Source: a bacterium (GTDB lineage: Bacteria; Hydrothermota; Hydrothermia; UBA1063). From it: a DNA stretch of 64,000 nucleotides. Positions 3,149-34,183 of this stretch are shown here, one piece after another (within the stretch, counting starts at the first letter, position 1; each line of letters begins with the position of its first letter). A program made the position numbers and the translations under genes. A model generated the notes under the pieces. That model saw only the letters and a list, made by a program, of their open reading frames with translations, did not search any database and was not told the DNA's origin. The stretch lies in contig JASEFR010000003.1 in assembly GCA_030019025.1 (NCBI GenBank), forward strand, positions 19,885 to 83,884, read 5' to 3'.

Positions 3149-3159
3149 ATATGCCTCTA

Positions 3160-3248: not shown

Positions 3249-3351
3249 ATCAGTTAAATAAATATGAAGCCATATTTAAGTTTAATCAATTAAACTTTGC
3301 AGTGATTGGTGCTTTTATAAACGAGATTGGCACTATAATATTAAGAATGAG

Positions 3352-4206: not shown

Positions 4207-4227
4207 AGGTTTGTTTCTTTTCGGTGT

Positions 4228-4276
4228 TTGACTTTTCACTGTGTAATATATACAATTTAACGGGTACAATTTAAAC
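4228..4276 (+). promoter_or_regulatory. putative promoter/operator of the sbcD-sbcC-addA-addB operon
   Basis: TTGACT -35-like hexamer at about 4228-4233, with a TATATA/TATACA -10 candidate 13-15 nt downstream. The direct repeat TACAATTTAA(C/A) occurs twice (about 4251-4261 and 4265-4275). There is an imperfect LexA-box-like palindrome, CACTGTGTAATATATACAAT. Confidence 0.3.
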
Positions 4277-4279
4277 AGT

Positions 4280-5422: not shown

Positions 5423-7752
5423 AGATTAGACGAATTGAAATAAAAAATTTTGGACCGCTCAGTTTAAAAAATCCCATTGAGCCTGGGGATTTTACGCTTA
5501 TATGGGGACTTAATGAGAAGGGTAAGACTCTGGTTATAGAGGCTCTACTTAATAACCTGCCAATGGATGTAACTGAAAGAGGATTTGACAAGAAAGTTTT
5601 GAGAATTTTGGATAAGGAGGGAGTTTCTGTCGAAATTGAAGACGAAGGAAGGACATACAGTAAATCCCTGAACAGATTTTTAGATTTAAAACTAACAAAG
5701 AGTGATATTTATAATCTGTTTTTTGTATTGAACAGTTCCCTCATTTACACAAAGGACGAGGAAGTTTTCAGATCCGCTCTTGACAGGTTGAGCAGTACCT
5801 ACATTGATATTCTTCAGAGTGTGAAGAAAAAGCTTTTGGAAACTAATAAGTTAACAGAAACCCTCAGTTTAAAGAATACGCGGGATGAAGATTACCTTGC
5901 AGATCGTTACGAAAAAGCAAAGGAAACTTTAACGAAAATAGAAAGCCTTTTCAAAGAGATAGAAGAGAAGAGTTACGCTGAGCTGGAATACAAGGCAGGG
6001 GAGTTAAAGCGTGAACTCGAGAATATTATGAATATTGAAGAAAATTTAAAAAGAAAAAAGGCTGAGAAGATATTGGGAAGAACGGAAGAACTTATGAATC
6101 TCTATTTTGACTACAAAGCGCGGGCTGAGGCGTTCAAAAGCTATACAGAGGAAGCTTTGGAAAATTTAAGGAACCTTTACAAAGAACTTGAAAATGTTAA
6201 TAGAGAGATAGAGGTAGTTAAGGAGAAAGATCTAAAGTCTTTTGAAGAAAAAATTTTGGAACTTTCTCAAAAACTTGTTAATTTCGGCAAAGTTAAAAGT
6301 GAAATTCAAAGAATTGAGTTGACGGAGAAGCTTTTGGAGGAAAAGATAGTCAAGTACAGGATAATGTTACCTGACTATGAAAAGAACTTGAAGAAGAAAA
6401 AGTTAATGATTGTATTATTCAGTATTTCAGTACTTCTTTTTGTGGGTTTTTTAGGGAGTGCTACAGTTCTCAAAAATAACCTTTTATTTGGGGTGTCGTT
6501 ATTGTTTTTTGTTATTACCTCTGCCTTTCTCTATCTATATTCAAAATCACTTAACTTTGTAAAAGATTTTACCCTTTTAAAGTCCGAAATTTTTGATAGG
6601 GCAAGGAGTGTGGGATTTAAGTCAAATGAGGTTGACGAGCTGTTAGATGAACTGGAAAAGATCAAGCAGGAATTGATTGAAAAGGAGAAAGAATTGGAGG
6701 GTTTCAGACGAGAAAAAGAGACACTGGAAACTTTGAAGAGGAGTAAAGAAGATGAGCTCAAAAATTTGGAAGGAAAAAGAAACGAAATTAGAGCCAGAAT
6801 TGAGGTTGAAAGTGAAAAGTATGAAGTTAAGAATTTATCTGAATTTGAGGAAAAAGTGAAGGAGAGAAGAGATTATGAGAATAGAATGCGGGAATTTTTT
6901 AAAGAACTGGAGGGACTTTGGCACACTGAAATCGGTTCTTATAATGATGAAAATGACTTCTTTGTCAAGCTTCAGGAAGAGTTGAGAAAGCTGAGAGTCC
7001 GTAGTAGTGGAGAAGGAGAAGAGTACCATCACGAACTGCAAGATCTTGAGGCAATTGAAGAAAAAAGAAAGAAGCTGGCACAACTTAAAGAGGAAGTTGA
7101 CAAAAGACTTCTCAATTTACGGGATAATTTTGCAAAGATTGAAAGTGAGGTACAGCAAATCATTAAGAGCTCAGTACCTGTAAAGACGATAAGTGACCTT
7201 ATAGATTGCAAGAAAATTCTTGAGAATTTTATATATGAATTGGAAAAAAGAATGAGGCTTAGTAAGGTTTTGGTTGATATTTTGGATAAAGAAATTGAGG
7301 GGAGCAAAAACAGATTTAATGATCTATTTAGCGACTTAACGCAAACATCCGAATTTTTTGAACGAATAACTGGTGGAAGATATAAAGTTATACTATACGA
7401 TCAGGAGAAGAGGACTATAAAAGTTGAGGATAAAAAGGGGAATGTCATAGAAATCTCTAAACTTTCAGGTGGTACAATTGATCAGTTATTTTTTGCCATA
7501 AGGCTTGGCCTCGGAATTAAAGTTTTAGAGGGGAGAAAAGGATTTTTTGTTTTTGACGACCCGTTCATTAAAAGTGACTCCGAAAGGCTGAAAAGGGAAT
7601 TGGATCTGCTTGTGGAAATTTCAAAAGACGGGTGGCAGATTTTGTATTTCAGTTGTAAGGATGAGGTTAAAGATTATTTACTAAGAAATTATGCAGATTA
7701 TGTAAAATTTGTGGATCTTAATGAAAATTCAAGTCTTGCACACGAAATTTGA
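5419..7752 (+). CDS. sbcC: SbcC/Rad50-family ATPase with long coiled coil and central transmembrane hairpin (YhaN-like)
   Basis: N-terminal Walker A (WGLNEKGKT). The central part is extremely K/E-rich heptad-like sequence. The C-terminus has the LSGG signature (ISKLSGGTIDQ) and Walker B/D-loop (FFVFDDPF). There is no CxxC zinc hook. Instead there are two hydrophobic helices (LMIVLFSISVLLFVGFLGS...LLFGVSLLFFVITSAFLYLY) at about nt 6406-6545. Confidence 0.75.
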   Translation: MKIRRIEIKNFGPLSLKNPIEPGDFTLIWGLNEKGKTLVIEALLNNLPMDVTERGFDKKVLRILDKEGVSVEIEDEGRTYSKSLNRFLDLKLTKSDIYNLFFVLNSSLIYTKDEEVFRSALDRLSSTYIDILQSVKKKLLETNKLTETLSLKNTRDEDYLADRYEKAKETLTKIESLFKEIEEKSYAELEYKAGELKRELENIMNIEENLKRKKAEKILGRTEELMNLYFDYKARAEAFKSYTEEALENLRNLYKELENVNREIEVVKEKDLKSFEEKILELSQKLVNFGKVKSEIQRIELTEKLLEEKIVKYRIMLPDYEKNLKKKKLMIVLFSISVLLFVGFLGSATVLKNNLLFGVSLLFFVITSAFLYLYSKSLNFVKDFTLLKSEIFDRARSVGFKSNEVDELLDELEKIKQELIEKEKELEGFRREKETLETLKRSKEDELKNLEGKRNEIRARIEVESEKYEVKNLSEFEEKVKERRDYENRMREFFKELEGLWHTEIGSYNDENDFFVKLQEELRKLRVRSSGEGEEYHHELQDLEAIEEKRKKLAQLKEEVDKRLLNLRDNFAKIESEVQQIIKSSVPVKTISDLIDCKKILENFIYELEKRMRLSKVLVDILDKEIEGSKNRFNDLFSDLTQTSEFFERITGGRYKVILYDQEKRTIKVEDKKGNVIEISKLSGGTIDQLFFAIRLGLGIKVLEGRKGFFVFDDPFIKSDSERLKRELDLLVEISKDGWQILYFSCKDEVKDYLLRNYADYVKFVDLNENSSLAHEI

Positions 7753-10700
7753 AATTTTACCTCTTTGAGATGAGTAAAAATCCTGAATTGGGGTCTCTAA
7801 TTTTAAAGAAGCCCCAAGAAGCACCATTCATTGTTGTTCCCACTTCTGCTGGGTCCGGAAAGACCGAACTCCTTGCAAAGAGATTGGTATTTTTATTACT
7901 TTCAGAGTGTAATTCAAAGAATGACCTTAGGAAGTTCCTTGCTATCACCTTTACCAGAGAGGCTGCCAAGGAGATGAAGAGGAGAGTAGTTGAAATCCTT
8001 GGTGAGTTGAGGAAGGGCAATTTTGATAGATTCCCGGGCTTGGAAGAAATTTTTAAGGATAAATTGGCGGAGAGAGTAGGTAAAGTATATGACATTGTTC
8101 TTGAAAATTATCCTCGTCTTAGAATTGGAACTATTGATAGTTTTATGGAAAGGCTTAGACGTCTTCTCCTCCACGAACTGGGATTGAAATTTACTTTGAA
8201 AGTCCACTATGAAGTTGATGTGGAGGTATTAAATCTTGCGATAGAGAATCTGTTAAGGTCATCTAATCTATTTTCAGATTTCTTAAAGATTGTCGTTGAA
8301 CTTGCTAAAGATAGTGAAAGATTCGAATGGGATCTATTGAAGGCCTTTAATGAAAGGATAATTAAACTAAAAAGTGCGGAGGATAGGTTACTTTATGATT
8401 TGAAGCCTCATCCTCTCTTTGCTTCCATTCAATGGGAAGACCGTAAAATTGGTGAGGAAATTGCGAGGCTTCAAAATAGTATTCCAAATGTTAGGAAAAA
8501 AATGAATGAAAATGATAGTTTCCTGCAGCTACTGGAGTTCTTGGCAAGAGGAAATAATGCATATAGTTTTTCGAATATATTGTTAGGTAAAGCTGATTTG
8601 TATGAAAGGGTATTCAGGGGGCTGTTGTGTGCCTTTGGGGCTTATAATAAACTGGAGACAAAGATTGCAGAATTTTATGAAAGTTTTTATAAGCCTGAGT
8701 ACAGAAGGATACTCAATACCATGGGAATTATCACCATCTCCGATACCAGTAGGATAATGAGAGATTACATGTTAAACCCCGAAAACTACTGTGATAGGTT
8801 AATAAATTTTCTTTATGGTATAAATCATATTTTGATCGACGAATTTCAAGATACAGACCCACAGCAGTGGGAGATCTTGCTTTACTTAATAAAGGAACAT
8901 GTTCTTAGCTCAGGGGGAACACTATTTATTGTTGGAGATATTAAACAAGCTATATACGGTTTTAGAAAAGCGGATTACAAAATTATGTATAGCCTACTTA
9001 GCCAGGACGGTTACAAAAGATATGGACTTAATATGCCTCCCTTTGTTCCTGAGATTAACGACAGAAATTTTAGGAGTTCAGAGGCTATAGTAAAGTTCGT
9101 AAATGATGTTGTCTTCAAAGAGGATGCTTTCGAGTCTTTTCTCCAGAACGAAGTTAAGAATTTGCTTGAAGGCGTCATCTCTAAGCAAAAGGCAGAAGTT
9201 AAGGCCCAAAAGATAGTGGAGCGGTATCGAAACATTTGGATACCGATTAGACAAGTTGCGCAAAAAAAAGAGATAGGATATGTCAAAAATATTAAAATAC
9301 CTAAAACCGAAGGGGTAAGAAGTAAAAAAGAGAAACTTGACAAGATTCTCCCGTATATTAAAGAATTGATAACAGAACTACTCGGCGAGTTTACCCCAGG
9401 CGAGATCACAGTGATGGCGAGAGACAATGACATGGTTCTCCAAATAGCCAGCTTCATTGAAAGAGAATTGGCTCAGCCCGTAATTTGTTTTTCCTCTCTT
9501 GACATTAGGAGTCATAAAATATTGTGGGAGTTAATATCTCTGGTTAAATTCTTGATTGATGAAAAGGATTTAAAGTCTGCCTTCGTATTTGCTACAGGTA
9601 CCATAGCTCAAAAAGCGGTTGGAAAGGATACAGTAGAGCTTACACGCGATTTTTATGAGTTTGTATTTAGAAGGTTTGAGGCTGACAATGAGCTTACTCG
9701 ACTATTTAAGAGCTTGAAGGAAAAATATTCAAAATTTTATGAGAAAAAGTCTCTTGCAAGGCTATTTTCTGAATTATTATGCGGGTTTGAATTTTTGAAT
9801 GAGGATAGCTCGCGAGGTGCTATTTTGAGGTTTCTGAATTTTCTTTTTAATAGTGAATTAAGGGAAGGATATATCACAGTCGACAAAGTAGAGGAAATTT
9901 TTAATCAGTTTCTTGATAGTATGAGTAATTCTCAAGCTGAGGATTTATCTATACCACAAAAAACGGAAATAAATGCCATAAAAGTGATGACTTTTCATAA
10001 ATCTAAAGGGCTTGGATTTCCAGTTGTGATAAACGTTTTCATTGACTCGAAAGGCGGGGGCAATGACCTTTATTTTGACAAAGAACATAAAGAAAGATTG
10101 CTTTATCCTTTTAAAATGAAGAAAGATTACTTAAAGATTATTGATAGTGGATTGCTAAATAATGAACATACCAAGCGTATGATGGAAAGATACATTGAGG
10201 AGAAAATTGACGAGCTCGTACAGGAGATAAACACGATCTATGTTGCTCTCACAAGGGCTAAGAAGAGGTTGTATAATATTTATATGGAAGATACTTACTT
10301 CAAACGCTTGGTCGAAGCTGGGAAAGCTGATGAAAGGGTTTATGGTGAAATAATAAAGGAGAAGAAAGAACCGTTAATCGAAAGTTCAGAACCTCCTTTA
10401 ATAACCTTTTATAGAAGGAAAAATCTACCAAAGGTCTTTATTGAACCACGTCGTGAGGAATTTCAAACCACCGACTTGATTTCGCGATTGAAAGCAAGTT
10501 GGGTAGGAGATGCTGTGCATGAATTCCTTCGCACTATCGATTTTATAGAAATGCCAGAAGAACTTATAAAATACAGAGATAGGATGGTGGCTATCGCTGA
10601 CAAGTATTATATCGATTCATTTACAGCTGAAAAGATTCTGGGCGTTTTGGTGGACTTTTTTTCCAGAGATGGTAGAATTAAAATACTGTCCAATAGACAG

Positions 10701-10952
10701 GGGGGTGAACTCTACAGAGAGAGGGAAATAGGATTAATTGATGGAAGTTTTGAAAGAATTGACCGACTGATTGTTGGTAAAGATTTTGTGGAGGTAATTG
10801 ATTTTAAAACGGGGGAACCTAAAGAAGAGGATATAAAGCAAGTAAAGGGTTATATTAAGGTTTTGAAAAAGATTTTTACCGCTCACGAAATTAAAGGGTA
10901 CCTTGCTTATGTGTTTAATGATCAATTGAAGGAAGTGAGTGATGAGGAGTGA
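7749..10952 (+). CDS. addA: ATP-dependent helicase/nuclease subunit A (AddA/RecB-like UvrD-family helicase + PD-(D/E)xK nuclease)
   Basis: Helicase motifs I (SAGSGKT), Ia (ITFTREAAKEM), II (IDEFQDTD), III (VGDIKQAIYGFR), V (KGLGFPVV) and VI (VALTRAKKRL). The C-terminal nuclease motif GLIDGSFERIDRL...VEVIDFKTG is of RecB/AddA type. Confidence 0.8.
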   Translation: MKFYLFEMSKNPELGSLILKKPQEAPFIVVPTSAGSGKTELLAKRLVFLLLSECNSKNDLRKFLAITFTREAAKEMKRRVVEILGELRKGNFDRFPGLEEIFKDKLAERVGKVYDIVLENYPRLRIGTIDSFMERLRRLLLHELGLKFTLKVHYEVDVEVLNLAIENLLRSSNLFSDFLKIVVELAKDSERFEWDLLKAFNERIIKLKSAEDRLLYDLKPHPLFASIQWEDRKIGEEIARLQNSIPNVRKKMNENDSFLQLLEFLARGNNAYSFSNILLGKADLYERVFRGLLCAFGAYNKLETKIAEFYESFYKPEYRRILNTMGIITISDTSRIMRDYMLNPENYCDRLINFLYGINHILIDEFQDTDPQQWEILLYLIKEHVLSSGGTLFIVGDIKQAIYGFRKADYKIMYSLLSQDGYKRYGLNMPPFVPEINDRNFRSSEAIVKFVNDVVFKEDAFESFLQNEVKNLLEGVISKQKAEVKAQKIVERYRNIWIPIRQVAQKKEIGYVKNIKIPKTEGVRSKKEKLDKILPYIKELITELLGEFTPGEITVMARDNDMVLQIASFIERELAQPVICFSSLDIRSHKILWELISLVKFLIDEKDLKSAFVFATGTIAQKAVGKDTVELTRDFYEFVFRRFEADNELTRLFKSLKEKYSKFYEKKSLARLFSELLCGFEFLNEDSSRGAILRFLNFLFNSELREGYITVDKVEEIFNQFLDSMSNSQAEDLSIPQKTEINAIKVMTFHKSKGLGFPVVINVFIDSKGGGNDLYFDKEHKERLLYPFKMKKDYLKIIDSGLLNNEHTKRMMERYIEEKIDELVQEINTIYVALTRAKKRLYNIYMEDTYFKRLVEAGKADERVYGEIIKEKKEPLIESSEPPLITFYRRKNLPKVFIEPRREEFQTTDLISRLKASWVGDAVHEFLRTIDFIEMPEELIKYRDRMVAIADKYYIDSFTAEKILGVLVDFFSRDGRIKILSNRQGGELYREREIGLIDGSFERIDRLIVGKDFVEVIDFKTGEPKEEDIKQVKGYIKVLKKIFTAHEIKGYLAYVFNDQLKEVSDEE

Positions 10953-13833
10953 AAAAATTATTTTACTTGAGCCAAAGAATTTTCTCTCGAATCTTGCAGG
11001 ATATATTGTTGATAAATGTGAAGCGGGTGAGAAAATTGAAAACTTCATTTTTATTATGCCTAATAGGCGTTCCGGTGTGTATCTGAGATACTTCATCACT
11101 CAGAGAATCGGTAAACCAGTTGTTTTACCTATGATCTTTTCTATTGATGATTTCGTTGATTATCACTATGAAAACTTTATTAAGAGGGATAAAAAACTGA
11201 ATGAACCAGATGCCCTGTATGTCCTGTACGATCTCTATAAGGATTATCTTGATACAATGGTTTTCTGGGATTTTGTATCTCTCGGGAAAAGGATTTACAA
11301 CGATTTTGAAGAACTCAAGATTTATAGAAGGACGAAAGAAGAGATTCAAGCGGTATTAACGCACTTAGATCTGCCTGAAAACTCAAGGACCAGAATTTTG
11401 CTTGAGAATTACCCTGCAGTATACGAGACGTTCTATGACACCATTAATAAAAATGGGTTTTCTACCCGTTCTACGAGGTATTTCCTTACTGCTGAAAAGA
11501 TTGATTTGGAAAGGGATTATAAAGATTTTAGTGTGGTTATGTGTCTTCCCTTTCTTTTGACTGAGAGTGAAAAGTTATTTATTAATAGGGCGTTAGATTC
11601 TGAAAATTTCACGCTGGTTTTACAAGACTCTAAGTTTGCATTGGATGAATTTAGAAATCAATTTGGAGAGGATTTGTTTCCTTTAGCAGTTTCAACAGAG
11701 CACCCCTTGCTTCCTCAAGATTTGAGGGTTGAATTGATACCCACAGATGATGATATTTCCGAGATATACTTAGTTGCAGATAAACTGGCGAATGCCAATG
11801 TAAAAGAATTGAATTCTATTGATACAGCTATTATTTTGCCCGACTCTTCAAAGTTGGTTCCATTGTTAGAATTTGCGATTCCTGAAGGGGTAGATTTCAA
11901 TGTATCTATGGGGTATCCTGTTAAGTTAACGGGGTATTTTACTTTTTTCAAAGATTTACTGGAACTTTTGAACTTCACTCAGTATGACTCAGAAACTGAT
12001 TCGTGTTTAATTAATGTCAAAAAGCTAAAGAACTTTCTTGAAAGAAATTTTCAAAGCGAAGGCGTTAGCGATATCTTACAGTTTTTAAAAATTCTCGGGT
12101 CCTCAGGGTATTCGTTGATAAGTGACAAAATGACGCCTTTTTTAGTTGACAAGCTTATATTGAACGATGAAGATTCTAAGAAAAGAATGAAAGAATTTTG
12201 GGAAAACTTTTTAAAGGAATTTTGGATTCCAATTTTTTCTTATAAAACTTTTGCAGGTTTTGTAGATTTTCTGATAGATTTTCTCGGGAAAAAGGAAGGC
12301 AAAAGTTTGTCTCTCAATGTGGGTGAAGACATTGAAGGACTTCGGCAAAGCCTTTTAGAAGAATTGTTTGTTTTAAGAAACTCTTTGCTTTCGAACATTA
12401 CACAAGATCCTTCCAATGACAAAGTTGAAAATTTAAAAAATTTTGTCAGATTTGTTTTAGACTTCACTGAATATCTTTCGATTCCGTTGAAAGGTACACC
12501 CCTTAAGGGTCTCCAAGTCATTGGATTTCTGGAGACCCGACTTTTAAGCTTCAAAAGGGTAATTATAATTGACGTTCAGGAAGGAGTGTTAACACGAAAT
12601 TTTGAATATGATACTCTTCTCCCTTATGACTTGAGAGTAAAACTTAGAATTGATGATTTAGATTCTAAGAATAGACTCTCCCAATATCTTTTTTTCACCC
12701 TTCTACAGTCTTCAAAAGATTGCACGGTTATTTACAAAGACTCCAATTTTGATGAACCTTCACATTTAATTTTGATTTTGAAAGAGTATCTTGCACGGGA
12801 TGGGCGAGAAGTGGGATCAACTTCTCACAGGAGTTATTACACTCTTATTTCCACAGGGGGAGAAAGAAGATTCAACTTCGAAGATGGAATTAAAAAGAAC
12901 GCCAATATGCTTGAGAAATTGAAGAGAATTACTTATTCCTATACCCACTTGGAGACTTATCTCGAATGTCCAGTAAAGTTTGCTCTTACCTATGTTTATG
13001 GCCTTAAAGAGGACATACAGGATGAATACGATAGGAGAATTATAGGGACCGTTATTCACGAAGTATTACAGAGGTTCTTTTCCGCTCTTGATGGAAAATT
13101 CAAAGGAGATGATTTTGAAAAAAGAGGATTTTTTGAGGTTTCTTCTAAGGTTCTGGAGGAGGAATATCCAATTGAAACTCCCAGAATAAAAATTCTGAAG
13201 ACTGCAATTACCGAGAGATTGTGGATTTCTTTATCAAAGTTGCAAGGAAGACTGGAGGAAGAGATTAAAAAAAATGAACTCGGTGAGTTCGTTAAATATT
13301 ACACAGAAAAGGAACTTAATGCAACGGTAGAACTTGAAGAAGGAATTAGACTTAACTTTACAGGAAAAATTGACAGAATAGATATCTTCTCAAATGGAGT
13401 CATAATTATAGATTATAAAAGCGGTAGCTCCTTTCGGGATTACGAGAAAGGAGACAACCTGGTGGGTTTGTCTGAACGGTTGAAAAATCCAGGTGTCTTT
13501 GTGTCCGAAATTATTACAAAGCCTAAGATTCAGCTTCTTGTGTACCTTTGGCTGTTTAAAAATTCAAAGCTTGAGTTTGTTGAGCTCAACGGAGGCAGGG
13601 TTTATGCAACTATTTTCCCATTGTTAGGACTTAGTTCTAAGAGCCAATTTGAATTAATTGACCTTTCACAAAAAGAGGTTTATGTGGAAACTGATGTGCT
13701 AATCAAATCGTTGTTACATGAAATTCTTAACCCAGAGATAGATTTTTACTTACCATCAAACAAAAAAGAACTTTTAACAAGGTGCAGAAATTGCCCATTT
13801 AAGGTTGCTTGTAATACGTACATTATGCTGTAA
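10939..13833 (+). CDS. addB: ATP-dependent helicase/nuclease subunit B (AddB-like; degenerate Walker A, RecB-type nuclease with Fe-S cysteines)
   Basis: The C-terminal nuclease motif is GKIDRIDIFSNGVIIIDYKSG. The cysteine arrangement is typical of the AddB iron-sulfur staple: YLECPVKF upstream and CRNCPFKVAC (C-x2-C-x5-C) at the extreme C-terminus. The N-terminal P-loop is degenerate (MPNRRSG). The 14-nt overlap with addA indicates coupling. Confidence 0.75.
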   Translation: MMRSEKIILLEPKNFLSNLAGYIVDKCEAGEKIENFIFIMPNRRSGVYLRYFITQRIGKPVVLPMIFSIDDFVDYHYENFIKRDKKLNEPDALYVLYDLYKDYLDTMVFWDFVSLGKRIYNDFEELKIYRRTKEEIQAVLTHLDLPENSRTRILLENYPAVYETFYDTINKNGFSTRSTRYFLTAEKIDLERDYKDFSVVMCLPFLLTESEKLFINRALDSENFTLVLQDSKFALDEFRNQFGEDLFPLAVSTEHPLLPQDLRVELIPTDDDISEIYLVADKLANANVKELNSIDTAIILPDSSKLVPLLEFAIPEGVDFNVSMGYPVKLTGYFTFFKDLLELLNFTQYDSETDSCLINVKKLKNFLERNFQSEGVSDILQFLKILGSSGYSLISDKMTPFLVDKLILNDEDSKKRMKEFWENFLKEFWIPIFSYKTFAGFVDFLIDFLGKKEGKSLSLNVGEDIEGLRQSLLEELFVLRNSLLSNITQDPSNDKVENLKNFVRFVLDFTEYLSIPLKGTPLKGLQVIGFLETRLLSFKRVIIIDVQEGVLTRNFEYDTLLPYDLRVKLRIDDLDSKNRLSQYLFFTLLQSSKDCTVIYKDSNFDEPSHLILILKEYLARDGREVGSTSHRSYYTLISTGGERRFNFEDGIKKNANMLEKLKRITYSYTHLETYLECPVKFALTYVYGLKEDIQDEYDRRIIGTVIHEVLQRFFSALDGKFKGDDFEKRGFFEVSSKVLEEEYPIETPRIKILKTAITERLWISLSKLQGRLEEEIKKNELGEFVKYYTEKELNATVELEEGIRLNFTGKIDRIDIFSNGVIIIDYKSGSSFRDYEKGDNLVGLSERLKNPGVFVSEIITKPKIQLLVYLWLFKNSKLEFVELNGGRVYATIFPLLGLSSKSQFELIDLSQKEVYVETDVLIKSLLHEILNPEIDFYLPSNKKELLTRCRNCPFKVACNTYIML

Positions 13834-13899
13834 AATCTTTTTTAGAGGGAGGAGAGGATGTGGTTGTTGTTACCCTTTTTAGTAATTTGGGAGGTAAGG

Positions 13900-14481
13900 A
13901 TGATTAAACTTCCTGAGCCGAGAAGGGATAGTAATTTTTCTTTGGAGAAGGCAATTAATGAAAGGAGATCGGTAAGGACTTATAAAGATTCTTCCCTAAC
14001 TCTGAAAGAAGTGGCTCAACTTCTCTGGGCAGCCCAGGGCAAGGTTAAGAGTGGAAAGAGGGCAACCCCTTCTGCGGGCGCGACCTATCCCATGGAGATT
14101 TATCTTATCGCAGGTAAAGTAGAGAATTTAGAACCAGGGCTTTATAAGTATAATCATGATGAGCATTCTCTGCAACTCGTGAAAGCGGGTGATCTTAGAA
14201 GGGAAGTTTCTGAAAGAGCACTCAGACAGGATATGATTTTGAAAGCGCCAGTTACAATTGTAGTCTCAGCGGTTTTCGGAAGAACGAGGGCACGATATGG
14301 GGCAAGAGCGGAAAGGTACGTGTATATGGAAGCTGGTCACATTGGTCAGAATATATACTTACAGGCAACGGCACTGGGCCTCGGCACTGTGGCTGTGGGA
14401 GCCTTTATCGATGAAGAAGTTAAAAGGGTCCTTGGTATAAAAGAGGAACCTTTGTATCTATTCCCCGTCGGATGGAAGTAG
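13900..14481 (+). CDS. SagB-type dehydrogenase / nitroreductase-family protein
   Basis: Nitroreductase-fold motifs (RRSVRTY, TPSAGATYPMEIY, EAGHIGQN). The start was moved to MIKLPEP, which is preceded by a GGAGGT RBS. Confidence 0.6.
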   Translation: MIKLPEPRRDSNFSLEKAINERRSVRTYKDSSLTLKEVAQLLWAAQGKVKSGKRATPSAGATYPMEIYLIAGKVENLEPGLYKYNHDEHSLQLVKAGDLRREVSERALRQDMILKAPVTIVVSAVFGRTRARYGARAERYVYMEAGHIGQNIYLQATALGLGTVAVGAFIDEEVKRVLGIKEEPLYLFPVGWK

Positions 14482-25718: not shown

Positions 25719-27482
25719 TTGAAAAGTTGTCGAAAAAGTTTTAAATTATTAACTGTGATGAAAGTAAATAAGGTCCTTGCTAAAAAATTCGAAGAACTTG
25801 CAAATGCCCTCGATTTCTTGGGCGAGAATCCTTTTAAGATTCGTGCCTATGTAAAAGTTGCAAGGGTACTGGAAGAACTTCCTGAGGATGTTACGGAAAT
25901 ATATAGAAATCAGGGGTTTGAGGGGCTTGAAAAAATTCCTGGTATAGGGGAAGGGATAGCCAAAAAGATAGTAGAGTTTATAGAAAAGGGTACATTTGAA
26001 AAGTATGAAGAGGTGATGTCAAAAGTTCCGACGGATCTTCTTAAATTGATGGATGTACCCGGTATTGGTCCTCGAACATTGAAATTGGTTCACGACAAAT
26101 TCAAAGTTACAACCGTGGAAGAATTTATCAAAATTCTTGACGACCCTCGCATTCTTTCTTTACCTGGCATGGGGGAGAAAAAAATCGAAAATATCAAGCG
26201 GGGACTCGAACTCTATTTCAGTATGCAAGAGAGAATTCCTCTTGGTATCGCTGTAAGTATTGTAGAGGAAATTATAGAACATATGCGTGAATTGGGGAAA
26301 GTTGAGCTGATTTCTGGGTGTGGTTCTTATAGGAGAATGAAAGAGACTGTCGGTGATATTGATATATTGGTGGTTGGAGAAAATGGCGCAGAAATTATTG
26401 ATCATTTCACGAAGTTCCCTTCAGTGACTGACGTTCTGGCCTCTGGAGAGACCAAAGGGTCTGTGATAATTGATGGAAAGTATCAGGTTGATATGAGGGT
26501 GGTTGGAAGAGAGTCCTGGGGAGCGGCCTTACAATATTTTACTGGCTCAAAGAATCACAACATCAAGTTAAGGACAATAGCAAAGGCTAAAGGATTAAAG
26601 ATTTCTGAATACGGTGTTTTCAGGGATGAGAAGTTCGTAGCAGGTACTGAGGAGGAAGAAGTTTATAATGTCCTCGGTTTACCATGGATACCTCCTGAGC
26701 TGAGAGAAGATCAGGGAGAAATTGAGGCTGCGATAAGCGGTAATCTGCCCCTTTTGGTGGGATACAATGATTTAAAAGGAGATCTTCATGTACATTCTGA
26801 CTACTCTGATGGTACTTCAACTCTTGAGGAACTGGTAGAGTATGCAAGAAGACTTGGCTATCAATATTTAGGTGTATGCGATCACTCGAGGTCTGTTAAA
26901 TATGCTGGTGGTTTAGATATTGACGAGCTAAGGGAAAGAAACAGAGAAATAGATAGGATAAATAAACTATACAAGGATTTCAGACTGTTGAAAGGTGCTG
27001 AAGTTGATATTTTAAGCGATGGTCAGTTGGATTATCCGGATGAAGTGCTTCGTGAACTTGATTTTGTAGTAGCTTCCATTCACATATGGAAGAAGAATGA
27101 GGATGCTACCTCAAGGATTATGCGGGCTATGGAAAATCCCTTTGTCACAATTATTGGGCACCCAACAGGGAGACTTATTGGGCAAAGAGAGGGTTATCAT
27201 GTGGATATTGATGCTGTAGTTGAAAAAGCAGCGAAAACAAAAACTTTCTTGGAGATAAATGCCTACTATGAACGACTTGATTTTAACGATATTAATGCCA
27301 GAAAGGCCAAAGAAAAGGGGGTTTTGTTAGTTATAAATACAGATGCACACCACGTCGGTCAACTTCAAATGATAAAATTAGGGATCGGCCAAGCGAGGAG
27401 AGCATGGCTTGGGCCTTCGGATGTGGTCAATACAAGAAACTTAGAAGAAGTTATAGAACTTTTAAAAATTAAGATCAAATAA
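25719..27482 (+). CDS. polX: DNA polymerase X family protein with C-terminal PHP 3'-5' exonuclease domain
   Basis: Pol-beta nucleotidyltransferase motif (GSYRR...GDIDILV) and PHP motifs (HVHSDYSDG, HPTGRL). The real start is possibly the internal MKVNKVL (25758). Confidence 0.85.
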   Translation: MKSCRKSFKLLTVMKVNKVLAKKFEELANALDFLGENPFKIRAYVKVARVLEELPEDVTEIYRNQGFEGLEKIPGIGEGIAKKIVEFIEKGTFEKYEEVMSKVPTDLLKLMDVPGIGPRTLKLVHDKFKVTTVEEFIKILDDPRILSLPGMGEKKIENIKRGLELYFSMQERIPLGIAVSIVEEIIEHMRELGKVELISGCGSYRRMKETVGDIDILVVGENGAEIIDHFTKFPSVTDVLASGETKGSVIIDGKYQVDMRVVGRESWGAALQYFTGSKNHNIKLRTIAKAKGLKISEYGVFRDEKFVAGTEEEEVYNVLGLPWIPPELREDQGEIEAAISGNLPLLVGYNDLKGDLHVHSDYSDGTSTLEELVEYARRLGYQYLGVCDHSRSVKYAGGLDIDELRERNREIDRINKLYKDFRLLKGAEVDILSDGQLDYPDEVLRELDFVVASIHIWKKNEDATSRIMRAMENPFVTIIGHPTGRLIGQREGYHVDIDAVVEKAAKTKTFLEINAYYERLDFNDINARKAKEKGVLLVINTDAHHVGQLQMIKLGIGQARRAWLGPSDVVNTRNLEEVIELLKIKIK

Positions 27483-28842
27483 GATATTCTGCTGGGTCAA
27501 TTCCATATTTCCATGGTGATTCTACTTTGACGATTTCTATTTCAGATTGACTTAGGTCAAGGGTTCTGTGAATCTGGTCTTTTCCTTCAGCATCTTTTAT
27601 AACAAGTACAACCGGCTTATGTAATTTTTCGGGATCTTGAGGTTGTCCCACCACCAGTGCCCATTCTCCTGTAGAGAGAAACACAAGACTTCCCAGTGGA
27701 TAAATCCCGAGTAGATTAATGAAATGCTTAGAAAGAAGTGGATCGAAAAGTTTTCCCGAATATTTTACCAAGTAGGCGATTGCTTCGGAGGGCGACATTG
27801 GAATAGGATTATAGAACCTTGGGGTCGTTACAGCATCGTAGAAGTCCGCGATTTGAATAATTCTTGAATAAAGTGATATACTGTTTTTCACGAATTCTGG
27901 ATATCCAGAACCATCGTATCCTTTTTGATGCTCTAAGATAGATAGTAGAATTGGTGCCGTTTCTTCAGAAAGACCCATTAAATCAAGAGTTATTCTAAAT
28001 CCATTGATGGGATGAGTCTTCACAATTTTCCATTCCTCCTCTGTGAGGAGTGATTCCTTTTTAAGGATGTTTCTTGGTATGTTTATCATGCCTATATCAT
28101 GGAGTAATGCTGCCTGACCTAATTTCAACAGTTCTTTGCTTTTTAAACCTATTCGAACGCCAAGGGAAAGGGATAGGATCGCGGTATTAACAGAATGGTT
28201 GTAAAGAAAGTCATCATAGTTTTTAACGACTGTTAATCCAAGAAGCAGGCTTTCAGAGGTTTTTAAGGTGTCAATGAGATAGAGGACGCCAACGGTAAAT
28301 TTGGTGTGACTTGGTTTTGACACGCCCCCAGGGATGGAAATATTTTTGACCAGGTTTATTGTTTCGAAGTAAACTTGTTTCACTCTCTTTTTAGGATCAA
28401 CTATTTCAGTTGGTTGAACTAACATGGGTAGAATTTTTATGGAAGCCACGCCTAAACTTGCGAGATTTTCTCTCAAGTTCTCGGAGTTTGTGACTTCTTT
28501 TGATAATTGCTCAAGGAATATCCCCAATTCCTGAACAGTACAGTTTTGACTTATCTTTATTCCTCCGATTCCCTTTTCTTGGAATAGATCTACAACTTGT
28601 TTGATAAAAGGAAAATTGACAGAGGAAATTTTTAGTCTTTCACCCATTATATAAATGTGTAATCCTCGAAGAACGAAATTAAATTCATCGGCTTGTTTGA
28701 GACTCTCCGAAAGTATTTCAAATAATTCGCCCAGACTTTTCTCGCTTACGTTGTGTTTGATATCATAGAGTTTCACGTTATTATACGCAGAGAGAAATTT
28801 AACCAGAATTCTATTCATGTAATTTTCGTCAAAAGTCGTCAT
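27475..28842 (-). CDS. HD-GYP domain phosphodiesterase with ~200-aa N-terminal domain of unknown function
   Basis: HD motif (LLHDIGM) and GYP motif (HQKGYDGSGYPE). It is the last gene of a 3-gene minus-strand operon. Confidence 0.8.
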   Translation of the reverse strand: MTTFDENYMNRILVKFLSAYNNVKLYDIKHNVSEKSLGELFEILSESLKQADEFNFVLRGLHIYIMGERLKISSVNFPFIKQVVDLFQEKGIGGIKISQNCTVQELGIFLEQLSKEVTNSENLRENLASLGVASIKILPMLVQPTEIVDPKKRVKQVYFETINLVKNISIPGGVSKPSHTKFTVGVLYLIDTLKTSESLLLGLTVVKNYDDFLYNHSVNTAILSLSLGVRIGLKSKELLKLGQAALLHDIGMINIPRNILKKESLLTEEEWKIVKTHPINGFRITLDLMGLSEETAPILLSILEHQKGYDGSGYPEFVKNSISLYSRIIQIADFYDAVTTPRFYNPIPMSPSEAIAYLVKYSGKLFDPLLSKHFINLLGIYPLGSLVFLSTGEWALVVGQPQDPEKLHKPVVLVIKDAEGKDQIHRTLDLSQSEIEIVKVESPWKYGIDPAEYLI

Positions 28843-28846: not shown

Positions 28847-30481
28847 TCACTCCTTAAACTGTTTCAAGGCTTCTGAACACATTTCTCTAATTTTTGAATC
28901 TTTCGTTTTTTTAACCGCTTCTATTAGAAGTAAATAAACTTTTCGTTTATTTGATTCTACCAAGGAGTTGATTAGAAACTGGAGTGTCTCGTAATATTTT
29001 TTTGACTTTGTTATTTTGTTTAGCAAAGACAAATTCTGTGTGAGAATATTTCTCAGAGCTTCTTCGACTGCAGGATAGTCGATATATTCGGGTATAAGAC
29101 TCAAAAACTGTTTCTTTTCCAGAACATCAAATTTGAAAAATAGTTCATCACTTTTAAGCCTTTCAACGATCAGGTTTACAAAAGATTTTCTTGGATTTCT
29201 CTTCATTTCCAGATAAGTGGTCATTCTTACCGATATATCATCATCGTAAAAAAATGGTGTTAAGTCACCTTCAATGGCCGAAAGCGCCTCCAAGAGGTTC
29301 TTTTTAAGATTTTTGTCTATATTCATTTGAAGTTCTGTCAGGAATTCCTTGGCTTGACTGTATTTTCCTACAGATATAAATTCAAGACCGGCCGAAAGGA
29401 TCTTTTCGTTTTTCTTGTTAGTCACGATGTATTTCAAGATCCGATTTGGTTCAAAATTTTGCATGTTAATCATAGCTCTGAAGATTAATTGTCTTTGACT
29501 CTTCTGAGGCAGTTCTGCCGCGATTTTGAAAAGCGCGAGTGCTGCATTTGAATCGAGTCCGGATAAGAGTAGTTCAAGTTCTTTCGGCCTGTTATCAATG
29601 TGGTTCCTTATCATATTTTCAATCAAAGATGGTTCAGAAATTCTCTTGAGCAAAAGATCAATGGCCCGTGCTTTTTCAGTGCTTTGTAATTTTATCTTCA
29701 GGGTCTTGAGATCGTGAATTACTCTTGAAACCTTGCTAATCCCGGAGTCGTTTATTTCGAGTAAAATAAACTCTTCAAGTGCTTTTAGTAGTGATTCAAT
29801 TTCTTCCACTGATTCCAGCTCGATGATAGTATAAAGATAGTATAACACTTTTTCTAAATGGTTGGTTTCCCTTTCTTTAGCAATCTCTTCGTTTAGCTTT
29901 TGCTCTTCTTCAAAGGATATCGTGAAAACCTCTCTTGATTCAATTATGATCGGTATCTCTATAGTAGCAGAAATAGGTCCCTCATATTCTACAGGTTCTG
30001 ATGATGGTTCTTTTTCTTTGAGTTTCAGCAAATCCTGATATGTTTCTGGGACTACCACATTCTGGTCTTGTAAAAACTCTGGTATGAATTCGAAGGAAAT
30101 ACCACTATATTCTCTTAGATTTATCTCATAGATTAAAGCAAATTTGTCATTTGATGCATATGCATTTTGTATTGCTTCGAATAAATTCTGAAGGTCAGTT
30201 GCAGTGATATCTTGAGTAATGGAAATCCCCCTGATTCCATGTTTATACATTACCCATGCCAGATTATCATCGTCTTCACTTTCTTTCCAGATAGTTTTCC
30301 CTTCTAAATCAAGAACTTCTCCTTTATCAAATATGAATTCTATTTTTGTTGTTCTGGAAATGTTTATTTTTAGGTTGTCCCATAATTGCCTTAGAAAATA
30401 TTTGGGAATTTCGTGCCCTTTTGGATAAATTTTATAAGCCCGAAAGGTTTTATTAAATAAGTTAAATAAATCAGCCATCAT
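28847..30481 (-). CDS. hypothetical all-alpha protein (HEAT/ARM-like repeats possible), operon partner of cyclase and HD-GYP genes
   Basis: 544-aa ORF with the same codon-usage style as its neighbours. The gaps to neighbours are 4 nt and 21 nt. No catalytic motif recognised. Confidence 0.5.
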   Translation of the reverse strand: MMADLFNLFNKTFRAYKIYPKGHEIPKYFLRQLWDNLKINISRTTKIEFIFDKGEVLDLEGKTIWKESEDDDNLAWVMYKHGIRGISITQDITATDLQNLFEAIQNAYASNDKFALIYEINLREYSGISFEFIPEFLQDQNVVVPETYQDLLKLKEKEPSSEPVEYEGPISATIEIPIIIESREVFTISFEEEQKLNEEIAKERETNHLEKVLYYLYTIIELESVEEIESLLKALEEFILLEINDSGISKVSRVIHDLKTLKIKLQSTEKARAIDLLLKRISEPSLIENMIRNHIDNRPKELELLLSGLDSNAALALFKIAAELPQKSQRQLIFRAMINMQNFEPNRILKYIVTNKKNEKILSAGLEFISVGKYSQAKEFLTELQMNIDKNLKKNLLEALSAIEGDLTPFFYDDDISVRMTTYLEMKRNPRKSFVNLIVERLKSDELFFKFDVLEKKQFLSLIPEYIDYPAVEEALRNILTQNLSLLNKITKSKKYYETLQFLINSLVESNKRKVYLLLIEAVKKTKDSKIREMCSEALKQFKE

Positions 30482-30502: not shown

Positions 30503-33500
30503 TCAACTTTCACTTTTATGCAAATTTTCAATGAGTGGTACGAGGTTGGTTAATCTGTACTTATTCATTTCTTGTCGTAGCTGCTTAATTTTTGATTCTT
30601 TTAAGGCAATATCGGTGTCGCCTATTAATTTGTACTGGATCACACTTAGAAGTATTTTTTGTATTGGAAGACGTATGATGTCGAGTTGAGTTAAGATTTC
30701 TTCTATCATATAGTACTTTTCGAGATTATCAATGTCTCCATTATAGACGATGTTTCCAAATTCAAAAATTAGCGAACTTTCACGGATCGCCTTTATTCTT
30801 GGGTTATCTCCTCTTTGTTTAACAATTTGACGGCCTTTCTCCATGTTATTCTTCAGATAGTGGTAGATAAGGAGTGTGGAATTATAGTGGGCAAAGTCAA
30901 GGATATTTTCGGTGCGCCCTTGTAAAACAAAAAGTACTCTGTTTACTAAATCATCGAGAAGTTCATCTTTTTTAAGAGATGTTAGCAAAAGAAAGGTGTA
31001 AAGGAGTAGAATTAATATTTCCGAGTTTGAATAAGTGTAATTTGCTTTTTTTAAACTATTAACGCCATTTTTGGGGTCTCCAATCATGAGCTCTGTTATG
31101 CCTTTCAATATTTCCAGCATATTCTTAATTTTATACCACTCAAGGTTTTCTGGTACCTTCAAGTTGGAAGGAAGTTCATCATAAGTGTTTATATTTCCAA
31201 TATAAATATTTGTAACCCAGGAGTAGATTTTTGTCAGGAAGAAGATTTTTCTTTCACCGATTTGCTGTAGAATTTCTGATGAAGTTGCGAAATTGGTTAA
31301 AGCGCCAAGGCGTTCTCCCAGATACCCCAAGTTTAGAATACCTAAATTGAATAGGATAGTTCCTCTTAAGAAGTGGTTTGGTATGTCTTCTGCGATGCTA
31401 CGAGCTATATTTAGTAGCTTCTGTGCTTGTGCAAATTCACCCTGTTCCCTCTTAATGATGGAGTCAAAAATTAGTAACCAAACATAACTATCCTCGTCGT
31501 ACTCTTTTTTGATAATATTTTTAGAAAATTCTATTTCCTCACGAGCATGATCATATAGACGGGAATCCAAGAGTATTTTAGTTTTTCTGAGCTTGTATTC
31601 TGGAAGTATTAGTTCATCAACTTTGGATTCGGCTTCGTTTAATAGTGTTATTATTTTTTCCGTTAATTTTTTGCCTCCAATATTATTTATGTGTTCAATG
31701 TTTACTTCTGCGTATTTGGCAAATTCTATAGGTTTAGCGTTTTTCATTCTTTTGGTGCTCATTTCGAGAGAAGCTTCGTCAAATTCATAAGGATTCTTTT
31801 CCAAAATTGCATAATTTTTATAGGTTTCAAAGAATGTGGATGGTAAGTGGTTTTTGTAAGCTTCGAGGTTTGCTATTAAAGTATGAAGATTCCCACTTTG
31901 ATAATTAATTTCAACTTCGATCTGATAACAATTGCTGAGAAGGTAGAAATCGCTAATTTCTGTAGCGATATTAATTGCCTTCTTAATTTTAACCTCGGCC
32001 TCATTGAAGTGCCCGACTTTAAGAAGTGCTTCAGCGTAGCGATAGTAGAGGTCAAAGATCATACTCTTATCAACCATTTCATTTTCACTTCCTGAAATTT
32101 TTTCAAGAATTTCTTCAGCTTTTCTTAGCTTTGAGCAGGCAGCTGAATACATCCTAATATTTGCGAGATTGATTCCTGACTTATAATTATAGTACAGGGC
32201 TTTCTCTAAGACATCGCTCAGCTCAAAATGGTATGCAAGACTTTCATAGAATTCCTCTAAGTGGTTAATGTAAAGTTTTTCAATTGCTTCCCCTACTTTT
32301 TTGTGTAATTCTTTCTGCTCCTTTCTGAGTAGCAAATTGTAAGCTGCATCACGAACAAAGGAATGCTTAAATATGTAATGGTCTTCTTTAGTTTTGTCAG
32401 CATAAGCGATGCCAGATTCTTCTAATTTTCTTAAGTGAAATCCAAGATCTTCACGTTGCCATATTTCCTCTAAAATTTTTTTACTAAATTCTCTCCCTAT
32501 TACCGATGCTATTTTGGCTACTTGTTTGGTGTCAGGTGGAAGTTTGTCAATTTCTTGGAGGAATAGATTAGTGATTTTATCAGGAATTGATGCCTCGTTC
32601 AGGTTTTTAATCAGCGAAAGTTTTCCATCTTTTATTTGGAAAAATCCGTCCTTGTAAATTCTTTCGATTAGTTCTTCTATAAATAGAGGGTTGCCTTCTG
32701 TTTTACTGTACACAAGTTCAACAAATTCGGCTGGTAATTCCTGAGCCTCAAGTAGATTTTTAATTAGTTCCTCTGACTCCTCCTTTGTTAAATTTTGTAG
32801 CACTATGTTTTCTGTCAACGACAGTTCAGGAAGTAAAATGGTTTTCGTGGGCCTATAGGTTAAAAGGTAAAATATTCTAAGATTTGAAGTCTTTTCTATT
32901 AAAAATCTTAGCAGGTCAAGGGAGGCTTCATCAATCCAATGGATATCTTCGAATATTAAAAATAAGGGCCTGTTTTGTGAAAGGCTTTTGAATATTTCAT
33001 AAAAGGCCTCGAAAATGTCTAATTTTTCCTTTAATTTGAACTCGGGGTCAAGCCCAAGAAGGTTTTGTATTACCTTTTCTGCATTGACTGGAATATCATG
33101 TTTTTCGAAAGTGTTATGGATTTTGACTCGTTTTGTCTCTTTGTTATCTTCGGGTTTTATTTGTGTTAGTGCCTTTATGATGTCCAAAAAAGGTTCATAA
33201 GCAGATTCTTTACTTTGACTTTTACAAAGGGCTTCTAAAATTATATAGTCCTTATATTCTTTACAATACTTTTTGATTTCGTATTTCATTCTTGATTTGC
33301 CTACTCCTGCTTCTCCAATTATTGACACTGACGTGCTGATTCCGCTTTCTATTGAATTGAGAAGACTTTTCAATCTTTCAAATTCCCTTTTTCTACCCAC
33401 AAGTGGTACCAGTTTCCCTTTGAAAGTTGGAAGTGAACCGTATTCCAGGATTTTCGGCTGCACATACTCATAAAGCTTTATAGGTTCTTCCCTTCCCGGT

Positions 33501-34087
33501 ATATTAAATTCTCCTAAGGGCTTGAAATCAAAAAGGTGCGCCGTATATTCGGCCACCCTTTCTGTCACAACTATAGAGCATGGATGTGCAAGGTCATTTA
33601 TCTTTTCAGCTACATTTACAGTATCACCTATAACTGTATACATTCGTTTCCTTGATCCGCCAGTGTATCCACTGATTACATAACCGTTGTTTATAGAAAT
33701 TTTAACTTTTATGTCTTCTTTAAGATCTTCTGCAAGCCTTTCTACTGCTGAAAGAATCTCAGTTGAACAACGGATTGCACGTTCAAGGTCGTCTTCATGG
33801 GCAATAGGGGCACCAAACAAAATCATCACGCCATCACCAAGGTATTTATCTATAAAACCTTCATATTTATAAACAACTTGTTCGATCGTTTCGAAAATTT
33901 CGTTTAACATGTTGAGAACATCTTCTGGGTCCTTGTTTTCGCTAATTCTTGTGAAATTAACGAGGTCAGCAAAAATAACTGTAACAATGCGTTTTTCTGG
34001 AAGTATTAATTGCTTCAAAGGTATACCACAGTTGATACAAAAATTGGCGGTTTCGTTATTTTCAAAACCACAATTAGGACATTTCAT
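30503..34087 (-). CDS. multidomain signalling protein: N-terminal zinc ribbon + class III adenylate/guanylate cyclase domain + STAND/AAA ATPase + C-terminal TPR array
   Basis: Zinc ribbon: CPNC...CINC. Cyclase homology domain: both metal-binding Asp are present (VIFADLVNFT and YLGDGVMILFG), plus the transition-state region (YTVIGDTVNVAEKI). P-loop: IIGEAGVGKSRM, with a Walker B-like LFLIFEDIHWID. The C-terminal ~600 aa is TPR-like. The start was set at MKCPNCG, because the 31 aa upstream in the ORF is probably not translated. Confidence 0.8.
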   Translation of the reverse strand: MKCPNCGFENNETANFCINCGIPLKQLILPEKRIVTVIFADLVNFTRISENKDPEDVLNMLNEIFETIEQVVYKYEGFIDKYLGDGVMILFGAPIAHEDDLERAIRCSTEILSAVERLAEDLKEDIKVKISINNGYVISGYTGGSRKRMYTVIGDTVNVAEKINDLAHPCSIVVTERVAEYTAHLFDFKPLGEFNIPGREEPIKLYEYVQPKILEYGSLPTFKGKLVPLVGRKREFERLKSLLNSIESGISTSVSIIGEAGVGKSRMKYEIKKYCKEYKDYIILEALCKSQSKESAYEPFLDIIKALTQIKPEDNKETKRVKIHNTFEKHDIPVNAEKVIQNLLGLDPEFKLKEKLDIFEAFYEIFKSLSQNRPLFLIFEDIHWIDEASLDLLRFLIEKTSNLRIFYLLTYRPTKTILLPELSLTENIVLQNLTKEESEELIKNLLEAQELPAEFVELVYSKTEGNPLFIEELIERIYKDGFFQIKDGKLSLIKNLNEASIPDKITNLFLQEIDKLPPDTKQVAKIASVIGREFSKKILEEIWQREDLGFHLRKLEESGIAYADKTKEDHYIFKHSFVRDAAYNLLLRKEQKELHKKVGEAIEKLYINHLEEFYESLAYHFELSDVLEKALYYNYKSGINLANIRMYSAACSKLRKAEEILEKISGSENEMVDKSMIFDLYYRYAEALLKVGHFNEAEVKIKKAINIATEISDFYLLSNCYQIEVEINYQSGNLHTLIANLEAYKNHLPSTFFETYKNYAILEKNPYEFDEASLEMSTKRMKNAKPIEFAKYAEVNIEHINNIGGKKLTEKIITLLNEAESKVDELILPEYKLRKTKILLDSRLYDHAREEIEFSKNIIKKEYDEDSYVWLLIFDSIIKREQGEFAQAQKLLNIARSIAEDIPNHFLRGTILFNLGILNLGYLGERLGALTNFATSSEILQQIGERKIFFLTKIYSWVTNIYIGNINTYDELPSNLKVPENLEWYKIKNMLEILKGITELMIGDPKNGVNSLKKANYTYSNSEILILLLYTFLLLTSLKKDELLDDLVNRVLFVLQGRTENILDFAHYNSTLLIYHYLKNNMEKGRQIVKQRGDNPRIKAIRESSLIFEFGNIVYNGDIDNLEKYYMIEEILTQLDIIRLPIQKILLSVIQYKLIGDTDIALKESKIKQLRQEMNKYRLTNLVPLIENLHKSES

Positions 34088-34146
34088 TTTAGTAAATAAC
34101 AAATCTATTGTATAACGTCTTTCCGAAATAAGCAAATCAAAAGCAA

Positions 34147-34183
34147 AATTAATGCATTTGCTGGTGCTATTTGGACGCATTAA
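34147..34183. promoter_or_regulatory. inverted repeat in divergent promoter region between cyclase-STAND operon and DUF1573 gene
   Basis: TTAATGC ... GCATTAA arms separated by ~21 nt, including the palindromic AATGCATT, in the 105-nt intergenic region 34088-34192. Confidence 0.25.

Follow-up and report, generated by a model that had tools for sequence, protein, structure and literature searches.

A 544-amino-acid (aa) protein encoded at positions 28,847 to 30,481 of a 64,000-nucleotide (nt) stretch of the bacterial contig JASEFR010000003.1 (hereafter the window) is, by sequence comparison, a divergent, full-length member of a HEAT-repeat family that is widespread but unstudied. In the examined loci of at least four bacterial lineages, the family gene and a gene for an HD-GYP phosphodiesterase form an obligate, tightly spaced pair. 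Profile comparison further indicates that the two proteins begin with a homologous, unclassified α/β domain of ~140 aa (N-domain). We put at about even the chance that the 544-aa protein is a non-catalytic regulatory or scaffold partner of the HD-GYP enzyme, the two being predicted to associate through their common N-domains. The meaningful unit in the window comprises the last two genes of an apparent three-gene operon, rather than a cyclase-centered messenger system. These two genes are as follows:

28847..30481, minus strand: 544-aa open reading frame (ORF), ATG to stop, from the ORF call; divergent WOR-3-type member of the N-domain plus HEAT-repeat family
27475..28842, minus strand: HD-GYP phosphodiesterase gene, 455 aa, downstream; Pfam HD_5 at E=6.5e-28, GYP motif present

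The protein had been called an orphan in an earlier note on this DNA, a description that the searches overturn. A word-indexed search returned 13 close clusters with 54-100% identity, all 542-548 aa long and derived from metagenome-assembled genomes (MAGs) recorded as "bacterium" or as candidate division WOR-3, and their alignment is conserved end to end with a mean column identity of 72 %. An exhaustive HMMER search with the profile of these 13 homologues retrieves 534 representative clusters at E<=1e-3, of which 87 also pass E<=1e-10; the matching proteins mostly measure 540-620 aa and are collinear. The main-family relatives, 550-600 aa in length, come from Nitrospirota, Geobacteraceae, and Zixibacteria and, where named (Nitrospirota, Candidatus Manganitrophus, Zixibacteria), are annotated as "HEAT repeat domain-containing protein". 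Alignment of the WOR-3 family against a 12-sequence main-family alignment with hhalign gives a Prob of 99.9 and E=1.2e-33, covering 521 of 546 columns and including the linker motif and solenoid described below. A hidden Markov model (HMM) of the N-domain matches 279/279 collected family proteins, and the window protein carries the family hallmark, ~140 aa with a K-x-Y-P-x-x-H/N-P-I loop motif. Direct searches of the 544-aa protein against Pfam, NCBIfam, PADLOC, and PDB sequences gave chance-level matches only, namely T4 RegA at E=0.029 and HEAT_2 at E=0.059.

Within the window, 21 nt separate the upstream cyclase-STAND gene from the 544-aa ORF and 4 nt separate this ORF from the HD-GYP gene, the coordinates, both neighbors, and the spacing all being as the earlier note had them. 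The Shine-Dalgarno sequence of the HD-GYP gene (AAGGAG) lies within the final codons of the 544-aa ORF, and no terminator-like site was found on the minus strand between the three genes; because of these two features, we count co-expression in favor of the pair model.

The pairing extends across lineages. One genome per GTDB species was scanned with the family motif D[DE]DxVTL[LM]W, revealing relatives in 238 genomes, and the best 80 loci, distributed among Nitrospiria, Thermodesulfovibrionia, Manganitrophaceae, Geobacteraceae, Zixibacteria, and unclassified bins, were analyzed. ORF and HMM analysis locates an HD-GYP ORF directly downstream on the same strand in 74/74 of these species loci with at least 800 nt of room, with the remaining six stopping at a contig edge. 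The same arrangement is present in 8/8 look-up loci (L001-L008). Gaps between the two genes range from about -43 to +25 nt, with many overlaps of 4-17 nt; in Ca. Manganitrophus (L006), Zixibacteria (L007), and a metagenome bin (L008), the HD_5 gene follows with an overlap of 4 or 11 nt or a gap of 15 nt, and no cyclase is found near the pair. Reciprocally, scanning metagenome contigs with the HD-GYP N-domain motif L[LI][KR]T[ASC]QIH[DE] returned 28 loci, with the family gene directly upstream in all 26 that have upstream room. Both locus samples are biased by the search motifs used, and their results agree. When the neighbors are clustered across 88 loci, two conserved clusters emerge: that of the family gene, present in 86 loci, and that of the HD-GYP gene, present in 83. 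Every other cluster occurs in at most 26 loci. The tight coupling to both neighbors claimed earlier therefore splits: that to the HD-GYP gene is seen at all loci examined in Nitrospirota, Geobacteraceae, Zixibacteria, and WOR-3, and that to the cyclase gene holds in WOR-3 only.

Two further features were seen at individual pairs. One Nitrospirota MAG (MFD00991.bin.2.105) contains two HEAT/HD-GYP pairs on separate contigs (L041, 1657-4898, and L084, 5908-9122), so that paralogous pairs can coexist, raising the question of partner specificity. In Ca. Manganitrophus (L006, 10454-12631), a RelA/SpoT (p)ppGpp synthetase/hydrolase gene directly follows the pair on the same strand, an arrangement not conserved elsewhere.

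The N-domains of the two proteins are related at several levels of comparison. Compared by BLASTP, the N-termini of the two proteins in the window align in register (aa 9-146 versus 16-151) with 20 % identity and E=0.021. Alignment of the family N-domain with the partner N-domain by hhalign, using 78 pairs, yields a Prob of 97.4 and E=1.4e-11 over 128 columns, compared with E=0.04-0.6 for controls comprising the catalytic domain, a reversed alignment, and column-shuffled alignments; omission of the WOR-3 sequences still gives E=7e-10. An HMM built from the partner N-domains matches 207/279 family proteins at E<=1e-3, and the positions conserved in both N-domain families are K/R-T, I-Y/H-x-x-x-N/H, and G-I-x-x-I-x-F. 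One 696-aa family member from the representative library (P0040) possesses two tandem N-domains (aa 13-155 and 156-302) ahead of the solenoid, as might be expected of a self-pairing domain.

A search for the HD-GYP N-domain in other architectures returned only 9 short proteins; two of these were examined and proved to be pieces of ordinary pairs split by frameshifts, so that no new architecture came to light. Two long-read assemblies (L117, 3282-6444, and L118, 3621-6164) contain the pair with both genes fragmented; neighboring housekeeping genes are also split, and the splits are probably frameshift errors. Fragmented pairs of this kind generate spurious "stand-alone N-domain" proteins in databases.

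Structure prediction, which the earlier note had proposed as a check, divides the protein into an α/β N-domain at aa 1-~137, a low-confidence linker at aa 138-206, and a solenoid at aa 208-543 matching ARM/HEAT structures. The AlphaFold2 model, built on the 13-sequence alignment, has a predicted local distance difference test score (pLDDT) of 76.6 and a predicted template modeling score (pTM) of 0.50, and contains the following segments:

30062..30481, minus strand: N-domain, aa 1-140, α/β, in the order α-α-β-β-β-α-β-α-α-β, with the invariant loop motif K-I-Y-P-x-G-H-x-I-P
29864..30061, minus strand: linker, aa 141-206, of low model confidence (pLDDT <50 at residues 138-188 and 199-206)
29921..29959, minus strand: motif E-I-P-I-I-I-E-S-R-E-V-F-T, aa 175-187, inside the linker, with 11/13 positions invariant in 13 sequences
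28850..29863, minus strand: HEAT/ARM-like α-solenoid, aa 207-544, ~19 helices in the AlphaFold2 secondary structure, with degenerate repeats in the WOR-3 clade

The earlier note described the whole protein as helical; this holds for the C-terminal two thirds (aa ~207-543), but the first 140 aa form a separate α/β domain. The K/E/L-richness that it reported is mild, with L, E, I, and K contributing 13.1, 11.4, 10.1, and 9.9 % of residues, respectively, against 11.4 % L, 9.1 % E, and 8.9 % K in ten neighboring proteins.

The N-domain is confidently modeled and has neither a Pfam entry nor a solved structural relative. Comparison with known cyclic (di)nucleotide receptor folds gave no fold match, and no match was obtained to DUF3391, either as PF11871 or as the 3TM8 N-domain fold, in which four strands are followed by two long helices. 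The linker motif at aa 175-187 is the best conserved motif of the clade despite lying in a low-confidence region of the model, and it aligns with an "I-F-x-L-T-E-E-E" motif of the main family; we regard it as a candidate docking strand.

The solenoid helices (aa 208-543) are mostly modeled with pLDDT values of 70-95. A Foldseek search of the solenoid against the PDB retrieves importin-α, β-catenin, SPIN90, karyopherin-β2, and designed repeat proteins at E=1e-4 to 1e-2, and its matches include the PP2A-containing Integrator complex (8rc4); the TM scores are low (0.2-0.3), indicating a generic solenoid match. On Pfam HEAT_2, the window protein scores E=0.059 and 14.1 bits, below the 27.7-bit cut-off, and the C-terminal halves of distant family members reach E values down to 1e-31 and up to 109 bits on HEAT_2 and PBS-lyase HEAT-like repeats. 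The HEAT membership of the window protein thus rests on homology, its own HEAT motifs having decayed below the Pfam threshold; the earlier note's guess of HEAT/ARM repeats is borne out for the C-terminal part by these relatives and by the 521-column alignment.

The HD-GYP partner is composed of three segments:

28393..28842, minus strand: HD-GYP N-domain, aa ~1-150
27703..28260, minus strand: HD-GYP catalytic domain, aa ~195-380; matches PmGH in the PDB (4mcw, E=1e-21) over the catalytic part only
27475..27702, minus strand: C-terminal extension, ~75 aa, aa ~380-455, no Pfam match

Main-family partners retain the canonical H, HDxGK, H, HH, D, and GYP residues and carry RVY[S/N]R where RxY[K/R] is expected. 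In the WOR-3 enzymes, K-E-S/T replaces KPG at aa 262-264, and R/K-x-Y/H-N replaces RxxK at aa 342-345. Variants of the RxxN and RxxQ type shift HD-GYP specificity toward cyclic GMP-AMP (cGAMP), and an RxxS enzyme still hydrolyses cyclic di-GMP (c-di-GMP) (HD-GYP census, bioRxiv 10.1101/2021.11.05.467447). Given this published link to specificity and the RxxK-type variants in the subfamily, the substrate of the paired HD-GYP enzymes is uncertain, and the motif substitutions may alter the activity of the WOR-3 enzymes.

We propose that the two genes represent an ancient, co-inherited, and co-translated pair, whose N-domains would associate as a pseudo-homodimer, in the manner of the N-terminal domains that dimerize other HD-GYP enzymes. 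HD-GYP enzymes are active as dimers, and their N-terminal domains are thought to promote dimerization and control activity (HD-GYP census). Such N-N pairing would tether the HEAT/ARM solenoid to the enzyme; the solenoid, possibly together with the linker motif, might serve either to modulate the activity of the phosphodiesterase or to dock it onto other proteins, with local control of cyclic-dinucleotide degradation as the outcome. We count the solenoid in favor of a scaffold role because HEAT/ARM is a fold class known for protein-protein scaffolding. More tentative, and in our judgment somewhat improbable in its entirety, is an elaborated form of this proposal: a two-subunit cyclic-dinucleotide phosphodiesterase with an N-domain of new fold that heterodimerizes, operating by a PP2A-like logic of HEAT scaffold and catalytic subunit, and serving as a widespread local second-messenger device in Nitrospirota, Desulfobacterota, Zixibacteria, and WOR-3. 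In WOR-3, such a device would have been rewired through decay of the HEAT repeats, changes at active-site and substrate-specificity residues, and addition of a cAMP-cyclase/STAND input.

Several observations weigh against partnership through the N-domains. The full-length pTM of 0.50 leaves the relative placement of the domains unfixed by the model, and no fusion of the HEAT protein to an HD catalytic domain was seen among the 279 family proteins. Distance-matrix correlations among the four domains are uniformly high (0.77-0.90), and the partial correlation between the two N-domains is 0.24, compared with 0.40-0.44 between the solenoid and the HD-GYP domains, so that the N-N relationship is not singled out. 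Six WOR-3 HD-GYP sequences, that of the window included, carry HDIGM (K252M) and EHQ (H306Q) at positions that are otherwise invariant; given these substitutions and the degenerate HEAT motifs, the WOR-3 clade may have diverged functionally. A common N-domain is, moreover, equally compatible with two proteins that sense the same ligand independently.

This last point is the core of the strongest alternative, in which the N-domain is a small-molecule or redox sensor carried by both proteins, no stable complex forms, and the HEAT protein provides a separate protein-binding output. Conservation of the same positions in both N-domains, namely the polar loop Y/H-x-x-x-N/H and G-I-x-x-I-x-F, is consistent with a sensory role, as is the general view of HD-GYP N-terminal domains as sensor domains (HD-GYP census). 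The top Foldseek matches of the N-domain, which are non-significant, are GAF domains of PDE6, PDE2A, and PelD, and the lack of special N-N co-variation fits the same picture. We judge such parallel sensing rather unlikely.

The earlier note had raised a different arrangement, with the three genes forming one second-messenger system and the 544-aa protein acting as receptor or effector for the nucleotide produced by the upstream cyclase-STAND protein. The upstream gene is as follows:

30503..34180, minus strand: 1225-aa ORF, upstream; Zn-ribbon, class III nucleotidyl cyclase, AAA_16 STAND NTPase, and TPR, assigned by Pfam

Its Pfam matches include Guanylate_cyc (E=2e-29) and AAA_16 (E=4e-21) in addition to the Zn-ribbon and TPR, and its cyclase domain, read by eye and with no formal test, retains the metal-binding, substrate, and transition-state residues. 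The ORF as listed begins 31 codons ahead of the zinc ribbon; M32 (nt 34087) is probably the true start, given that the orthologue in locus L001 measures 1190 aa and the listed start lies only 12 nt from a divergent gene at 34193.

The receptor arrangement draws on the co-directional order of the three genes with its 21-nt and 4-nt gaps and no intervening terminator, on the retained cyclase residues, and on the adjacency of the cyclase-STAND gene to the pair in L001 and L002, the two WOR-3 loci with a complete upstream gene. In L003-L005, a same-strand upstream ORF is present but is cut by the contig end. The entire ~20-kb neighborhood is collinear in L001-L005, however, running through GAPDH, PGK, a sigma factor, MutL-like, RseP, DUF1573, the triad, PolX, Wzz, Poly_export, UDP-glucose dehydrogenase, LexA, and ArsB. 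We therefore reject WOR-3 synteny as support for a three-gene system: with the whole region from GAPDH to ArsB syntenic, cyclase adjacency says little and does not constitute independent evidence. Outside WOR-3, the cyclase is adjacent in 0/80 loci and absent from the 6-kb flanks in 78/80; in the other two (L057 and L079), the 6-kb flank does contain a class III cyclase, but other genes separate it from the pair and it lacks the STAND module. The cyclase-STAND gene is thus a WOR-3-specific addition outside the conserved unit.

The chemistry and the domain content also argue against a nucleotide receptor. HD-GYP enzymes hydrolyse the cyclic dinucleotides c-di-GMP and cGAMP, not cAMP or cGMP (bioRxiv 10.1101/2021.11.05.467447), which renders a cyclase/HD-GYP messenger circuit incoherent as first formulated, since the enzyme does not degrade the products of a class III cyclase. 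No catalytic or nucleotide-binding family was detected in the 544-aa protein in Pfam, NCBIfam, or PADLOC, in agreement with the earlier reading that no such motif is visible. The suggestion of distant homology to cyclic-nucleotide-binding folds found no counterpart among known domains or folds: cNMP_binding/CAP, GAF, PilZ, and MshEN give no Pfam or NCBIfam match in the window protein at E<=1 and none in 10 distant family members at E<=0.01, nor did the fold comparison reveal any other receptor domain. Taken together, we consider the receptor arrangement very unlikely. A Pycsar-like defense island was likewise rejected, with the cyclase matching PADLOC PycC models through its generic cyclase domain only and the locus lying in core-genome synteny; PADLOC gave no match for the 544-aa protein or the HD-GYP protein.

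For the WOR-3 pair, the cyclase-STAND gene may feed in a cAMP or NTP-dependent input. The degenerate HEAT repeats, altered HD-GYP residues, and added cyclase-STAND neighbor together suggest a clade-specific rewiring in WOR-3.

A transient assembly chaperone of the HD-GYP enzyme, loading or protecting its Fe/Mn center, for example, would also account for obligate co-occurrence with a metalloenzyme, and PBS-lyase-type bacterial HEAT proteins do act on partner proteins. We regard such a maturation factor as highly improbable. The solenoids of WOR-3 and of the main family have no conserved cluster of His, Cys, or acidic residues in common, and H407, which never varies in the main family, is not kept in WOR-3. 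A chaperone would need no homologous N-domain, and many HD-GYP enzymes show activity in the absence of any such factor (HD-GYP census).

Among known systems, PmGH (GAF-HD-GYP, 4MCW), Bd1817 (DUF3391-HD-GYP, 3TM8), and RpfG (REC-HD-GYP) resemble the partner enzyme in placing an N-terminal domain, here ~150 aa, before the catalytic domain. The N-domain described here is not GAF, DUF3391, or REC, and here the gene directly upstream always encodes a non-catalytic protein that combines the same N-domain with a HEAT solenoid. PBS-lyase-type HEAT proteins (HEAT_2 / HEAT_PBS; CpcE/F and NblB) are related in that the main family scores strongly on both models; unlike CpcE/F and NblB, this family possesses an N-domain and linker and has no phycobilisome link, and the window repeats fall under the Pfam threshold. 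The novelty relative to both groups is a separate HEAT partner bearing the enzyme's own N-domain.

The PP2A holoenzyme, with its HEAT A/PR65 scaffold and metallophosphoesterase, offers an analogy only, in that our proposal also has a HEAT solenoid holding a metal-dependent phosphohydrolase and presenting a docking surface; homology goes no further than the generic solenoid, and the association proposed here would proceed via the N-domains, not the solenoid ridge. RpfG-GGDEF-PilZ complexes of Xanthomonas (reference 99 in PMC12943098) provide a precedent for HD-GYP enzymes inside protein complexes, but they involve other partners and have no known common domain or conserved gene adjacency. The upstream gene resembles cyclase-STAND-TPR proteins in combining a class III cyclase, AAA_16, and TPR, with the TOMM kinase/cyclase fusion TIGR03903 as its closest NCBIfam model; its score of 267 bits falls short of the 706-bit cut-off, so that it does not belong to that equivalog, and its link to the pair is WOR-3-specific.

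Among the phosphodiesterases of c-di-GMP/cGAMP, the HD-GYP class is the least well understood, and little is settled about how its activity is controlled and localized. The HD-GYP census lists REC-, DUF3391-, GAF-, DUF3369-, and membrane-domain architectures and neither this N-domain nor a HEAT partner, and no description of the HEAT/HD-GYP pair was found in the full-text literature within the limits of the searchable library. A large HD-GYP subfamily, spanning Nitrospirota nitrifiers and manganese oxidizers, Geobacteraceae, Zixibacteria, and WOR-3, is always accompanied by a dedicated HEAT partner in the examined loci, and the pairing together with the common N-domain provides a concrete, testable hypothesis of a two-subunit phosphodiesterase.

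The genome has a GC content of 36-38 %, and the GC profile is flat at the locus. Elsewhere in the window, a tRNA-Ser gene (anticodon CGA; 3159..3249, minus strand) is the sole RNA gene detected by Rfam and ARAGORN. An unusually strong positive GC skew (0.17-0.34) marks positions 4000..14000 (plus strand), a stretch spanning three large overlapping plus-strand ORFs (5419..7752, 7749..10952, and 10939..13833).

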